The notes under the pieces: generated by a model
The model's input: the letters and a program-made list of their open reading frames with translations, nothing else
Database searches by the model: none
Told to the model about the DNA's origin: nothing
NCBI GenBank assembly: GCA_942492995.1
Contig: OW818653.1
Location: forward strand, 1,770,001 to 1,802,000
DNA: 32,000 bases
From: an uncultured Erysipelotrichaceae bacterium
GTDB lineage: Bacteria > Bacillota_I > Bacilli_A > Erysipelotrichales > Erysipelotrichaceae
Direction of reading: 5' to 3'
Translations under genes and position numbers: made by a program
Shown: positions 23,530 to 27,889 of the stretch, in pieces
Layout: every line of letters begins with the position of its first letter
Position numbering within the stretch: position 1 is the first letter of the stretch

Positions 23530-24240
23530 TTATTTAATGTTAAGCAATATTGATAATATTATAATTATCATATTCATAATCCCAATTACCATTACTAATG
23601 AAGTAAACTTTTTCTCAAGTTTATCGATTTTAACATTCATGAGCGTATTAAAATCATTTAATTTATTTTGAATTTCTAAAATATTCCTATTAGAACTTTC
23701 ATATAATGAAACCAAATTTCTTAAAGTTTCTCTTGTGAAGTTAACTTCTTTTTCTAATCCAATTGTACTATTCTTAAATGAATCATTTGTTTGATCAATT
23801 AGCTTTTTGTAAGTTTCTTCAATTGATGCAATATTTTCTTTGGTATTGGTTTCTAAATCAACGATTAATTCCTTATATCGATTTTCGATTTCAGATGCAA
23901 GTTTTCTTAATTCTTCAATCTTTTGATTTGTATCTTTCTTCGATTCTTCGTTGGATTGAATAAATCGATTTTCGATTTCAGAAGATAGTTTTCTTAATTC
24001 TTCAATCTTTTGATTTGTTTCATTCTTCAATTCTTCATTTACTTGAATAAATCGATTCTCAATTGTTTCAAGAAAATTTTTGGAATTAGTGTCTATTGAT
24101 TTTACTAAATTATCAATATCCTCTAGTCGTTTTAATCCTTCTGTTGAGTTTCTGTTAGATTGTTCAAGTTCTTCAATTAACTGAGTTGCTGTCTGTATTT
24201 TATGCTTAAAATTCTGTAGTTCATTTTCTAAATTAGTCAT
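23530..24240 (-). CDS. Tail-anchored coiled-coil protein with 29-aa tandem repeats
   Basis: Preferred start ATG 24240 (AAGGAG, complement of 24247-24252, 6-nt spacer) rather than 24261. Heptad-rich E/K/N/L sequence. One C-terminal hydrophobic helix 'LVMVIGIMNMIIIILSILL'. The RBS overlaps the stop codon of the upstream RecQ-like gene. Confidence 0.7.
   Translation of the reverse strand: MTNLENELQNFKHKIQTATQLIEELEQSNRNSTEGLKRLEDIDNLVKSIDTNSKNFLETIENRFIQVNEELKNETNQKIEELRKLSSEIENRFIQSNEESKKDTNQKIEELRKLASEIENRYKELIVDLETNTKENIASIEETYKKLIDQTNDSFKNSTIGLEKEVNFTRETLRNLVSLYESSNRNILEIQNKLNDFNTLMNVKIDKLEKKFTSLVMVIGIMNMIIIILSILLNIK
23879..24052. repeat. Two tandem copies of an 87-bp unit (about 87% identical by manual alignment) inside the coiled-coil gene
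   Basis: Copy 1 is 23879-23965 and copy 2 is 23966-24052, with degenerate partial copies on both sides. They encode 'NRFIQVNEELKNETNQKIEELRKLSSEIE' and 'NRFIQSNEESKKDTNQKIEELRKLASEIE'. Confidence 0.85.
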
Positions 24241-24250
24241 TTGTTTCTCC

Positions 24251-27200
24251 TTAAAGTACATCGCTATAATGTTTATTAATTGATTGGATTAAATAAGGTG
24301 TTATAAACTCATCCAAATTCTCCTCATAAGATAAATGCTTCATAAAATATTGAGAATTATAATTAAACGCGAAATCTATAATGTCTTTCTTAGCCGTATT
24401 TGAGCAAGATTTATAAATAATTGGAATGTTAGAATAGAATTCATCAACATCTTCTTCCGTACTTTTTGATAGTGCAAGTTTGAGTCGTTCTTGACCATTT
24501 CTTGTTTTAAAATTATCGAGTCTTAGCATTACAAGAGACATAAACAAGTTGATTTTATTTGATTCTTCTGTTTCAAGTAATCGTTCCATTACAACCCTTA
24601 TTTCTTGAAGTTGATTATTTTTTATTTTAGATGCTCTATTCAAAACTCCTCTTATATTGACTCCATCAAATGTAAATGATAGTTTTGAATCACGCTTTTC
24701 AAGTAGTCTTGAAATATCGAAGAATTGACTCATTTCATTTTGTATAGAGTCATTCATTTGAGCGTTTTTATATCTTTCTACAAAATCAAACATATTAGCT
24801 AATTGCTCACGTTTTGATCTTAAAAATGTGCTTTGATACCATTCTCTAATGATTACAATAATGTCATATAGCTGATCTATTCGTTCAATTCTATCAATTT
24901 TGTTTATTAGTTCAGTATTAGGTAGATATTGATTCAAATAGTTAATCGATGTTTGTTTAATATGTTCAATATCTAAATACTCTGGATGTAGTTGAATAAC
25001 TAATACTACATTCAGATAACCTCTATATTCTACTGTCCAAGTTCTGATTATTCCAATTTTATGTAGTATATAAAGCTTGTTTTGAAAACTGTTTAAGTAT
25101 TTACTTTCAAGAAAATGAGTTACGCTTAAATTATTTGTTCTCTCAAGTAAATATTTCAATACTTCAAGGGTTTGTTCTGACTCCTTTTCAGGTGTATTCA
25201 AATCTTGTGTCATAAAGAATGCAATTGTTGATAGATCACTGTCATCTGAATAACCTAGATTATCATTTAATCCTTTTAATTCTTCTACTGAAGTTGATAA
25301 ATCTAAGAACCGATTTATCTTATCTTGATATTTAGGATTAGCTTCATAGGTTAAAAGTAAACAACCAGACTTCTTACCATCGCGCCCAGCACGTCCAGCT
25401 TCTTGGAAGAATGACTCTCTTGAAGGTGGGATACCAAAATGAATAGTTCTTCTGACATTTGGTTTATCTATTCCCATCCCAAATGCTTTAGTTGCGAATA
25501 ATAACGTCTTTTTATTTCGAATAAAATCATCTTGTGTATTCTTCTCTTCACCATGAAAGAATGTAATTTCATTTGGAAATGACTTCAAATATTGCCTGTG
25601 CATTCTATTTAGTAATGCCTTTGTCTTGAAAAATACAATGTAGGCATTAGCTGGGTTCTTATCAAGACTAAAACTGATTCGCGGATTCTCGTAGTCAGTT
25701 TTTAAAACTTTATCAAAAGTTTCAACAAGTTGAGCATAGCTTTTAGTTTTAAGAATAGAGAAATTTAGATTATCTCTTTGAAGTTTCTTAGAAAAAACGA
25801 TATTATCCTTGTCATAAATTCCAAGCTCAACTTGAAGATCTTTAATAACATTGATAGCAGCAGTAGCGGTTAATCCTAAATATTGAACATTTGAACAATA
25901 AGTATTAATAGTATGGGAGAGCATTAAATACGATACTCTAAAGTCATGACCCCATTCTGACAAACAATGAACTTCATCTAACACAATTAGTCCAATCTTC
26001 TTTTTGATACTTTGAGCAATTAACCAATCCCTAAAAACCTTATTTTGGAATCTCTCAGGTGAAGAGAAGATAAAAATAGATGGACGTTTAAACATCTTAT
26101 CAACAATTGTTTTTGCACTTAAGTTACCTTCTTCAGTAGTCTGAGCGATTAATTTAACAACTCTGTCAATCATAAATTCTTCAGTTAATTTTCTATATTG
26201 ATCGATTATGAGTGCATTAATTGGGTCTACAATTATTGTGAATTTAGGTTGCATTAATGCTGCCATTTGATAGATTAGTGATTTCCCACCACTTGTGGTT
26301 AATATACCAATTGTGTTATTACAATTTAATGCACTTCTAAGTATTTCTATTTGACCGGGTCTAAATTCTTGGAATCCAAAAAGTTCTAATAAAAGAATGT
26401 TTAAGTACTCTATATGTTCAGAACTATCATTAATTTTGTATTTTACTTTATCTGCAATCCATAAGTTGGCTAATGTTTCGTCTGAGAAGTCACTCAGAAT
26501 AGTATAAGAATTTGATTTATTAGGATATATAACTTCAAAAGAAATATTGATTTTTTCTAAAGTGAAATCAGTTGAAGTTAAGTTTAATAATGGACTTTCA
26601 AAACTCAAGTTTGCTAGAGTAGTAAGGATCTTTACTCTGTTTGTAAGATCTCCGATTGCAATATTTAGATAAGTTAATGAAGAGTTAATTATATTTAAAT
26701 TCCATTGTTTGTCATCTAGATGATTGTTGCGAATTAGAGACAAAACAAGAATTTCGAGCTGATATACTTTTCGATACTCAGATTCATTCAAATTTAATGT
26801 TATTAAATATTGAGATGGTTGAATATATCTGCCTCTAATTAGCTGATTAAAAACGGTGGCATAGAAAGAATCATATTTCGATGTACATTTATCTTCATCA
26901 CTAACATTAAAAATCGAGAAAGATAATTCTCCTAGGAAACAACTATCATAAGAGACCTGGCAATTTTCAACTAATAGTGAGAAATCAGTGTAGATATCAT
27001 CGGAGTCTTTTATAACTTCAATTTCTTGTTTTGATTTTTGAAATGATTCAATTTTTAATCTGTTTTCCTCTAATAAAGCAGTATTTCTTTGTAATGCAAT
27101 ATCATTTGTTTTAAATTCAGTTTGTTTATAAGAAAGTAATTCATCTTCAATATCTTGAAGATCTAATGTAAGAATATCAATCTCATCTTGTAGATATATC

Positions 27201-27889
27201 TCATCAGGAGAATCATCAAGTTGTTTTTTTAATATTTCTATTTTTTCTGTATATTTTGCAAAATTTGATTTTAAATAATCATATCTTCTAATTTTTTCTA
27301 GTTGAAAATCAGAGACAATATCAAGATTAAGATTCAATAATTTCTTGCTTTCTTTTTCCAAAACTTCAATTTGTTTATTTTGATATTGGATAAGATCGTC
27401 GACTTTATCCTTTTTAACTTGTTGTATCTCAAGTTTAAATTGGTGTTCATCTGTTCTTGTGAGAATTGATTCATCAAAAACTCCCAAATCAAGCTCTTTA
27501 AATTTTTGAAAGTATTTCTTTATGATGTAATAGTTAAACTTTATATAACTTATTGCATCTTCCTCTAGGTAATCGATTCTATCATCTGTATGTTTAGTTT
27601 TGTTGCCTTTTGAATTTATATCGGATATCGTTTTGAAATCATGATCAGAAAGATCAAGTTCATACTTGAGAAAGTCCTTAACAAACATATTATTTAATAG
27701 AGAACCTAAATTTGGCTTATGCCCTAAATAACTTGTTTTTTTAGCATCCTGTATAATTTGCTTAATTAATAATTCCTGGAATTGTTGAACAAAAATATAA
27801 ACAGCTTTATTGCCGTTTTTCCACATCAAAATAGAGTTGTTAAACGACTCGTAAATAGAACTATAGGACTCTTTGATTATTTCAAACAT
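24251..27889 (-). CDS. RecQ-core SF2 helicase with DUF4145-like N-terminus and long coiled-coil/unknown extensions
   Basis: 1212-aa ORF. RecQ-type motifs 'ILTTSGGKSLIYQ', 'IVLDEVHCLSEWGHDFR', 'LGLTATA', 'FATKAFGMGIDKPNVRRTIHFGIPPSRESFFQEAGRAGRDG'. No Cys-rich Zn, RQC or HRDC signature follows the core. N-terminus 'FVQQFQELLIKQI...NLGSLLN...ISDINSKGNKTKH' resembles DUF4145. Confidence 0.8.
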   Translation of the reverse strand: MFEIIKESYSSIYESFNNSILMWKNGNKAVYIFVQQFQELLIKQIIQDAKKTSYLGHKPNLGSLLNNMFVKDFLKYELDLSDHDFKTISDINSKGNKTKHTDDRIDYLEEDAISYIKFNYYIIKKYFQKFKELDLGVFDESILTRTDEHQFKLEIQQVKKDKVDDLIQYQNKQIEVLEKESKKLLNLNLDIVSDFQLEKIRRYDYLKSNFAKYTEKIEILKKQLDDSPDEIYLQDEIDILTLDLQDIEDELLSYKQTEFKTNDIALQRNTALLEENRLKIESFQKSKQEIEVIKDSDDIYTDFSLLVENCQVSYDSCFLGELSFSIFNVSDEDKCTSKYDSFYATVFNQLIRGRYIQPSQYLITLNLNESEYRKVYQLEILVLSLIRNNHLDDKQWNLNIINSSLTYLNIAIGDLTNRVKILTTLANLSFESPLLNLTSTDFTLEKINISFEVIYPNKSNSYTILSDFSDETLANLWIADKVKYKINDSSEHIEYLNILLLELFGFQEFRPGQIEILRSALNCNNTIGILTTSGGKSLIYQMAALMQPKFTIIVDPINALIIDQYRKLTEEFMIDRVVKLIAQTTEEGNLSAKTIVDKMFKRPSIFIFSSPERFQNKVFRDWLIAQSIKKKIGLIVLDEVHCLSEWGHDFRVSYLMLSHTINTYCSNVQYLGLTATAAINVIKDLQVELGIYDKDNIVFSKKLQRDNLNFSILKTKSYAQLVETFDKVLKTDYENPRISFSLDKNPANAYIVFFKTKALLNRMHRQYLKSFPNEITFFHGEEKNTQDDFIRNKKTLLFATKAFGMGIDKPNVRRTIHFGIPPSRESFFQEAGRAGRDGKKSGCLLLTYEANPKYQDKINRFLDLSTSVEELKGLNDNLGYSDDSDLSTIAFFMTQDLNTPEKESEQTLEVLKYLLERTNNLSVTHFLESKYLNSFQNKLYILHKIGIIRTWTVEYRGYLNVVLVIQLHPEYLDIEHIKQTSINYLNQYLPNTELINKIDRIERIDQLYDIIVIIREWYQSTFLRSKREQLANMFDFVERYKNAQMNDSIQNEMSQFFDISRLLEKRDSKLSFTFDGVNIRGVLNRASKIKNNQLQEIRVVMERLLETEESNKINLFMSLVMLRLDNFKTRNGQERLKLALSKSTEEDVDEFYSNIPIIYKSCSNTAKKDIIDFAFNYNSQYFMKHLSYEENLDEFITPYLIQSINKHYSDVL

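Follow-up and report, generated by a model that had tools for sequence, protein, structure and literature searches.

A RecQ-type helicase and a tail-anchored coiled-coil protein form a conserved gene pair, a candidate anti-phage system from an uncultured Erysipelotrichaceae bacterium

A helicase gene and a tail-anchored coiled-coil gene recur as a pair

Here, we analysed two adjacent genes in a 32,000-nucleotide stretch of DNA from an uncultured Erysipelotrichaceae bacterium (GenBank assembly GCA_942492995.1, contig OW818653.1, positions 1,770,001 to 1,802,000), which we call the window. The first gene encodes a RecQ-type helicase of 1212 amino acids (aa), and the second encodes a small coiled-coil protein with one C-terminal transmembrane helix, referred to below as the partner. 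This gene pair recurs beyond chance, in every related locus examined. The helicase joins a RecQ-type core to other domains and belongs to a family whose members are strictly paired with a partner gene, swap their effector domains, lie in islands of defence genes and are hypervariable between alleles. On balance, we consider it somewhat probable that the two genes are a conserved coupled module, an unnamed conflict system (most likely an anti-phage one) in which a helicase-effector is tethered to the membrane. The features of the pair are listed here (SF2, superfamily 2; ORF, open reading frame; RBS, ribosome-binding site); other loci and proteins are cited by our L and P numbers.

24251-27889, minus strand: helicase ORF, 1212 aa, start ATG at 27889
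27500-27889, minus strand: helicase aa 1-130, predicted helical head with a divergent DUF4145/HEPN fold (AlphaFold2, Foldseek, hhalign)
27005-27448, minus strand: helicase aa 148-295, three long helices, predicted coiled-coil stalk (AlphaFold2)
26405-26992, minus strand: helicase aa 300-495, predicted pre-core alpha/beta domain (AlphaFold2, alignments)
25325-26404, minus strand: helicase aa 496-855, RecQ-type SF2 ATPase core (Pfam, PADLOC, NCBIfam and PDB matches)
24251-25324, minus strand: helicase aa 856-1212 and stop codon, family-defining C-terminal domain (profile, AlphaFold2)
24241-24253, minus strand: junction; the RBS AAGGAG overlaps the helicase stop TAA and lies 6 nt before the partner ATG
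23530-24240, minus strand: partner gene, 236 aa (ORF, homologue starts)
23877-24064, minus strand: 87-nt tandem duplication, 2.2 copies, within the partner coiled coil
23536-23607, minus strand: partner aa 212-235, predicted single transmembrane tail anchor FTSLVMVIGIMNMIIIILSILLNI, followed by one Lys (hydropathy)

The helicase keeps the RecQ-type core and lacks the Zn, RQC and HRDC modules

The first-pass annotation of this DNA, which was made from the letters alone, had read RecQ ATPase motifs in the 1212-aa protein, and matches from Pfam, NCBIfam and PDB agree that the core is intact. It holds motif 0, the Walker A motif TSGGKS, DEVHCLSEWGHDFR, DEVH and QEAGRAGRDG, and the aromatic-rich loop HxxSxWGHDFR is present alongside motif VI. 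The only Pfam domains found on the helicase are DEAD (aa 511-683) and Helicase_C (aa 743-838), and the PDB chains of BLM, RecQ, RECQ1 and RECQ5 match at about 1e-41, confined to aa 495-855. The NCBIfam model recQ_fam scores 218 bits, just below its cutoff of 219.8, and the RecQ equivalogs fail by a wide distance (TIGR01389, 236.9 vs 640.2 bits; PRK11057, 172.4 vs 1015 bits).

The same annotation had stated that the Zn, RQC and HRDC regions are missing, and this was borne out. Pfam gave no match in the helicase for RecQ_Zn_bind (PF16124), RQC (PF09382) or HRDC (PF00570), while the true RecQs recovered by the same homologue search do carry all three modules. After the core only two cysteines are found, C843 and C1162, where a Zn-binding subdomain takes four. 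Nor does the C-terminal region have a RecQ-like fold. AlphaFold2 models were built with family alignments for aa 1-500 (pLDDT, the predicted local distance difference test, 89) and for aa 855-1212 (pLDDT 91); the second is a mixed alpha/beta plus helical structure for which Foldseek returned no match at E<=0.001 in PDB or BFVD, and the PDB matches were at most weak ferredoxin/ACT/Alba-like ones. An RQC-like winged helix considered within it (helix-strand-helix-hairpin, C-terminal residues 46-113) was not supported, the Foldseek PDB matches falling short of significance. Our best reading is that the protein is probably a RecQ-type DNA helicase/translocase in which the pre-core and C-terminal domains would replace the Zn, RQC and HRDC modules.

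Between head and core, the first-pass annotation had seen some 350 aa of coiled-coil or unknown sequence. The coiled-coil part stands, as a three-helix stalk at aa 148-295; aa 300-490, in contrast, form a separate alpha/beta domain in the AlphaFold2 model. This pre-core domain is kept throughout the family, and the alignment of the distant relative P0005 begins within it, at aa 317.

The N-terminal head had been called DUF4145-like. Pfam is silent here: DUF4145 (PF13643) was undetected in the window helicase, on fragments and even at E=10. A profile made of 20 window-type head sequences, however, aligned by hhalign with DUF4145-positive family members (88.5%, E 2.8e-6, 108 columns), the window-type 'IN..GN..KH' being placed on 'IR..GN.a.H' of the DUF4145-positive heads. 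The predicted head also matched the HEPN structure 2hsb in Foldseek (prob 0.98, TM-score 0.67, root-mean-square deviation 3.8 A); with the 500-aa N-terminal model 2hsb ranked 18, and it was the sole structurally compact match. The matches of the same model to ABC transporters and pore-forming toxins were rejected as long-helix noise. Remote profile-profile and fold evidence thus suggests that placing the head with DUF4145/HEPN is right in kind. DUF4145 is a HEPN family with known fusions to SF2 helicases and restriction endonucleases (Anantharaman et al. 2013, PMC3710099). Within the window-type sequences the head residues E39, N96, K99 and H100 are invariant, and Q35, K43 and G62 are nearly so. 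The Rx4-6H motif is incomplete, since the His (H100) is invariant while the Arg position holds Asn or Lys in all 20 sequences. As this canonical Arg is absent, the catalytic competence of the head is uncertain.

We also observed that phrog_33220, a 1558-position profile of unknown function, matches helicase aa 473-1057 at 2e-76, which spans the core and about the first 200 aa of the C-terminal domain. This suggests that relatives of about 1500 aa exist in prophage-derived sequences; they are possibly P0006/P0009-type proteins with DUF559-like N-termini.

The partner is a small tail-anchored protein encoded at a tight junction

The partner consists of a conserved N-terminal helix (aa 1-35), a variable coiled coil, a basic juxtamembrane patch and a C-terminal transmembrane tail. 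The mechanically called ORF starts at 24261 (243 aa); we replaced this start by the ATG at 24240 (236 aa), because all homologues begin there (MTNLEN...). With this start, the junction reads cttTAAGGAGaaacaaATG, and TAAGGAG, with 6 nt between it and the ATG, includes the helicase stop, in agreement with the earlier observation that the downstream RBS overlaps the helicase stop codon. The arrangement argues for translational coupling of the two genes. Hydropathy windows above 1.6 are restricted to aa 212-235 and end one residue from the C-terminus, and this sole hydrophobic stretch bears out the prediction of a small coiled-coil protein with one C-terminal transmembrane helix. Matches of the partner to DUF7605, ZorA, JetC, LmuB and SMC models were discarded: they lie below cutoffs, cover helical regions only and reflect coiled-coil composition.

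The pair is conserved across a large, mostly metagenomic family

The C-terminal 358 aa were made into a profile and searched for exhaustively with HMMER, and clusters were counted at 50% identity. The profile matches 161 clusters (124 at E<1e-10 and 45 at E<1e-30), and the match nearly always sits at the C-terminus of a protein of 960-1260 aa. Apart from the window protein itself, word-indexed searching recovered only three close relatives, at 50-88% identity, and a distant one, P0005 (27% identity over aa 317-1062); with the C-terminal profile, a word-indexed protein search returned one fragment. Family members are nearly all metagenomic, and the named ones are labelled simply RecQ. A scan of GTDB species-representative contigs gave 1 locus, the family being absent from most representatives, and no family member was found in plasmid and phage collections (tblastn) or in an IMG/VR scan.

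In every locus with available downstream DNA, a partner ORF begins between -23 and +16 nt from the helicase stop. The paired loci (L001, L004-L007, L011-L019 and L021-L026) represent about 15 lineages with helicase identities of 21-88%, and homologous loci repeat the tight junction, with 7-16 nt between the genes or with overlap. Conservation outside the window, on which the first-pass annotation had staked its proposal, extends to loci with helicase identities as low as 21-27%, where a tail-anchored coiled-coil gene still follows the helicase stop.

The partners vary in length from 106 to 352 aa. They share an N-terminal helix of about 30 aa (consensus ..EL.KE.E.FK.KI.TA..LI..L.; motif (D/N)LxxE(I/V)xxF(K/R)xx(I/L)) together with the C-terminal transmembrane segment; the basic juxtamembrane patch and the transmembrane helix at the extreme C-terminus are strictly conserved. 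When a hidden Markov model (HMM) built on the N-terminal 45 residues of long-subfamily partners was run against 444 ORF segments, the downstream ORFs of the short subfamily were the top matches (L011, 3e-6; L013, 6e-4; L002, 2e-3), and the L012 partner is tied to those of L011, L013 and L002 by BLAST. Judged from the loci with downstream DNA, the partner appears to be obligatory for this helicase family.

Head domains are exchanged among relatives

We took a census of heads by a Pfam scan of the first 170 aa in 93 full-length members. DUF559 was found in 10 of the 93, PvuRts1I-like_N in five, DUF4145 in three, and DarT and HEPN_Swt1 in one each; Zn ribbons were also among the matches. In L022 (2420-4011) DarT is fused to the helicase as its head, and the overlapping upstream gene encodes a DarT1-associated NADAR antitoxin (3.7e-56). 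In L018 (2837-3421) a standalone DarT gene overlaps the helicase start, beside an integrase; this DarT comes without a recognisable antitoxin. The head position thus looks like an exchangeable effector slot on a conserved sensor/motor chassis, a signature of conflict systems.

Family members are found in defence islands or on mobile elements, with Druantia, BREX, TerY-P, a type IV restriction enzyme or integrases as neighbours. BREX lies near the pair in L006, NUDIX and NOV_C genes adjoin it in L014, and integrase or recombinase genes occur in L018, L023 and L026. In L002 (4031-10925) and L011 (230-7417) genes for a TerY-P-like Ser/Thr kinase, a VWA protein and PP2C are operonic with the pair, and the short-subfamily helicase and partner, with overlapping gene ends, are the last genes of the operon; the arrangement is common to a Bacteroidales metagenome-assembled genome and a second metagenome. 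Small upstream genes in the short-subfamily loci L012 (941-1660) and L013 (2786-3379) fall into no assigned family, share a W-x-(F/Y)-GPV motif and may represent a further accessory component.

The pair is hypervariable at a single chromosomal site

Two alleles of the pair occupy the window's own chromosomal site. Their helicases are 50% identical overall, with 49% in the head, 27-31% in the stalk, 43-46% in the pre-core domain, 63% in the core and 50% in the C-terminal domain, so the stalk is the most divergent part of the helicase. The partners are about 30% identical between alleles and come in lengths of 207, 236, 273 or 346 aa. By contrast, the abutting SF1 gene, described below, shows 92% identity.

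Part of this variation is in repeats. The window partner has 236 aa, compared with 207 aa in L004/L005, because of the 87-nt duplication, and a 59-aa repeat difference separates the partners of L025 (298 aa, 11658-12554) and L026 (239 aa, 6176-6895), which adjoin a 100%-identical helicase (P0041). The length of the partner stalk therefore appears to change through tandem repeats.

The pair lies in a defence island

The two-component-system proteins of the window cluster with HET6786143.1 and HET6786142.1, consistent with its Erysipelotrichaceae origin. The window has a GC content of about 28%, and a defence island fills it between the PTS/BglG (phosphotransferase system) genes on one side and an esterase-like gene with a two-component system on the other. 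Its layout is given here (SF1, superfamily 1).

1-3246: PTS/BglG genes, window flank
3681-11355, plus strand: 920-aa protein and DruE-like helicase (DruE-like match 1e-170)
11294-13402: GajB/UvrD-like helicase, island cargo
13782-14744: HNH protein, island cargo
14758-16554: AIPR/AbiU, overlapping the PDC-S07 NUDIX gene
16538-16939: PDC-S07 NUDIX protein, island cargo
16926-19772, minus strand: PLD-SNF2-DUF3427 type IV restriction enzyme
19882-23529, plus strand: 203-aa ORF and 1011-aa SF1 (AAA_11/AAA_12)-DUF2726 helicase (Pfam, PADLOC)
23530-27889, minus strand: helicase/partner pair
27890-28016, minus strand: AT-rich intergenic region 5' of the helicase gene, presumed promoter (read from the sequence)
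28017 onward: esterase-like gene and two-component system, other flank

The helicase ATG at 27889 is preceded by a weak RBS, GGGTG, as read from the sequence. Promoter and terminator scans of the locus gave nothing above shuffled background.

The 920-aa protein has no match in Pfam, PADLOC, NCBIfam or PHROGs; its position upstream of a DruE-like helicase is similar to the arrangement of Druantia type III. L024 (5065-11838) carries a DruH-like 927-aa homologue, 31% identical to the window's 920-aa protein, together with a DruE-like gene, and these two genes are directly downstream of another RecQ-like/partner pair. The GajB/UvrD-like helicase of the window stands without an obvious GajA and is followed by a 108-aa ORF and then by the Cas9-type HNH protein.

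A proposed membrane-tethered module and its alternatives

We infer a physical interaction between the two proteins, a membrane localisation, a trigger, a target and a defence phenotype of the pair, and the partner, described at first pass as 'effector or anchor', may in our view act as follows. It would bind a conserved surface of the helicase via its own conserved N-terminal helix; the helicase stalk or C-terminal domain are candidates for this surface, and the helicase's own coiled-coil stalk possibly runs alongside the partner stalk. Through this binding the tail-anchored partner would keep the helicase at the membrane's inner face. Such tethering could either place the helicase where phage DNA enters or restrain it until infection, after which the ATP-driven motor would engage foreign DNA and bring the head domain into action on nucleic acid. 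A more specific version, which we put forward only tentatively, is a membrane-hung RecQ-like motor on a coiled-coil stalk whose length is tuned as tandem repeats expand and contract. This motor would watch over the place where phage DNA comes in and bring an exchangeable head (HEPN-like, DarT or nuclease) onto the invading nucleic acid. Under this surveillance version the N..KH HEPN head would be either a catalytic variant of a new kind or a sensing domain, and the SF1-DUF2726 or TerY-P modules would be optional plug-in amplifiers.

Several points weigh against the tethered module as we draw it. The co-divergence of helicase stalk and partner is weak as evidence for contact, because coiled coils evolve fast anyway. 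The Arg-less window-type head may be no enzyme, which keeps alive an explanation, taken up below, in which the partner is the effector. The SF1-DUF2726 gene is a recurrent neighbour and suggests that the functional unit may exceed two genes. The link to mobility and to phages is indirect, given the negative plasmid, phage and IMG/VR searches. Finally, the context was sampled in about 15 lineages of about 100 full-length clusters, and the DUF559 subgroup is unsampled.

The alternative that fares best, doubtful as we find it, holds that the pair is half of a larger system with the 203-aa ORF and the Mokosh-like SF1-DUF2726 protein, the RecQ-like protein and its anchor being sensor or loader and DUF2726 the nuclease. 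The SF1-DUF2726 stop (TGA) abuts the partner stop (TAA) in convergent orientation at 23529|23530, with no intergenic base. The abutting stops occur in all window-type loci: this zero-spacing junction (window 23527-23532) is kept in L001 and L004-L006, with no terminator. Homologues of SF1-DUF2726 (35-38% identity) also precede the pair immediately and in the same orientation in L014 (gap of 18 nt) and L017 (gap of 4 nt). The gene adjoins the RecQ-like pair in three lineages and may be a third component. However, it is absent from L002, L011-L013, L015, L018, L022, L023 and L025; L010 has the SF1 gene without the RecQ pair, whose place is taken by unrelated downstream cargo, a PDDEXK_4 protein and a 304-aa ORF; and the modules diverge at very different rates (92% vs 50%). 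The SF1 helicase part matches MkoC at 2e-49 and MkoA at 9e-47 (PADLOC) and resembles those proteins of Mokosh, but the window protein has DUF2726 where Mokosh has PLD. Because most other lineages lack the gene and it also occurs by itself, we treat it as a frequent accessory or co-operating module and not as a core part of the system.

Unlikely in our judgement, the pair could work like a toxin-antitoxin system of the PsyrTA/RqlHI kind, in which the helicase-effector is toxic, the partner is a stoichiometric neutraliser at the membrane and infection frees the toxin (abortive infection). The core does resemble PsyrT, translational coupling would imply co-production, and some relatives have bona fide toxin heads (DarT), one of them with a separate antitoxin. 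That last variant also speaks the other way: the DarT-fused protein keeps both its NADAR antitoxin and the partner, and for this reason the partner is unlikely to be a generic antitoxin. Moreover, the partner has no similarity to PsyrA models and the window-type head lacks the catalytic Arg. This explanation overlaps with the tethered module, the difference being that the partner would be an inhibitor instead of a positioning device.

A further explanation, for which we see a rather slim chance, makes the partner itself the effector: the helicase would sense phage nucleic acid, the partner would oligomerise and permeabilise the membrane, and the degenerate HEPN head would be regulatory or dimerising. 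Small transmembrane proteins kill in many defence systems, and such common killing, the strictly conserved transmembrane tail with its basic patch, and a window-type head without the HEPN Arg all fit. However, the partner's single transmembrane helix ends 0-2 residues before the C-terminus, and amphipathic or pore-forming features are lacking; the family already has enzymatic domains in the head position of the helicase, so that a second effector is not needed; and the invariance of E39, N96, K99 and H100 is what is expected of a functional site. With enzymatic heads on the chassis and a bare tail anchor as its transmembrane segment, the partner probably does not serve as the main effector.

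We find it very improbable that the protein stands outside defence, as a specialised helicase at the membrane that repairs, recombines or segregates the DNA of mobile elements or of the host. In favour of this, such a RecQ core is what repair helicases usually have, the sources label relatives simply RecQ, and ParB or recombinase genes stand beside some loci. Against it, the distribution is sporadic (1 hit among GTDB species representatives), the alleles are hypervariable, relatives carry toxin heads (DarT, nucleases, HEPN) and the window island is full of defence genes.

If the pair does give protection from phages, it would be a further defence family, one that escapes current detectors: PADLOC and NCBIfam register only the 'RecQ-like' core and source databases name these proteins RecQ. 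It would also offer a simple two-gene model with which to ask what places and restrains helicase-based systems in the cell, whether stalk length has a functional role in membrane-anchored coiled coils (as has been proposed for Zorya) and what an Arg-less DUF4145/HEPN domain does. The DarT-fused and nuclease-fused relatives are natural experiments on effector exchange.

Comparison with known systems

No model in PADLOC, NCBIfam or Pfam covers the helicase/partner pair, and our literature searches found no description of it. The first-pass annotation had recognised no named system here, and this judgement held: the PADLOC matches to DpdF and PsyrT are confined to the core (aa 493-857), and the partner yields only coiled-coil noise.

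PsyrTA and RqlHI resemble the pair in having a RecQ-type core without canonical accessory domains and two genes in a defence context. The PADLOC PsyrT model matches the helicase at 2.9e-59, over model positions 10-352 of 689 only. In contrast to these systems, the HEPN-like head, stalk, pre-core domain and C-terminal domain of the window protein are all unrelated, and its partner is a tail-anchored coiled coil without a PsyrA match in PADLOC. DpdF, from the Dpd cluster of 7-deazaguanine DNA modification and restriction, is likewise a RecQ-like SF2 core with large extra domains and is the best PADLOC match of the helicase (4.6e-73, within aa 493-857). However, the NCBIfam DpdF equivalog NF041063 scores 131.7 against a cutoff of 550, none of the dpd genes (DpdA/B/C and others) is among the window ORFs, and DpdF has no membrane partner.

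The DUF4145-helicase fusions (PMC3710099) share an N-terminal DUF4145/HEPN-type head on a helicase, and RAZR is a DUF4145 RNase used in defence (PMC13434031). The window protein differs from both in being Pfam-negative and without the Rx4-6H Arg; it is also a RecQ-type helicase, its C-terminal domain is unique, and its membrane partner appears to be obligatory. CoCoNuT type II/III systems (PMC10542128) also combine coiled coils, a helicase and HEPN, and a TerY-P triad is seen in some of our loci (L002, L011); the pair, however, has no McrB-like GTPase or McrC, its helicase is a RecQ-type SF2 protein and not CnuH, and it has a membrane tail anchor. With DarTG and DarT1-NADAR, the common ground lies in two relatives: L022 joins DarT to the helicase, with NADAR upstream, and in L018 a DarT gene overlaps that of the helicase. 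The window locus, in contrast, has no DarT, and classical DarTG has no helicase or membrane partner.

In its overall plan the pair recalls Zorya, which joins a membrane-anchored intracellular coiled-coil stalk of variable length to a nucleic-acid enzyme (ZorAB, ZorC and the helicase-nuclease ZorD), and the Shield protein ShdA (transmembrane segment, coiled coil and RmuC nuclease), another membrane-anchored coiled coil with a nucleic-acid enzyme. ZorA models match the partner in the coiled-coil tail only (E 2e-4 to 8e-4). Unlike ZorA, the window partner is without a MotA/ExbB-type channel domain of several transmembrane helices and without a ZorB companion, and it has one C-terminal transmembrane helix, and unlike in both Zorya and Shield, the enzyme of the window is a separate RecQ-like protein.

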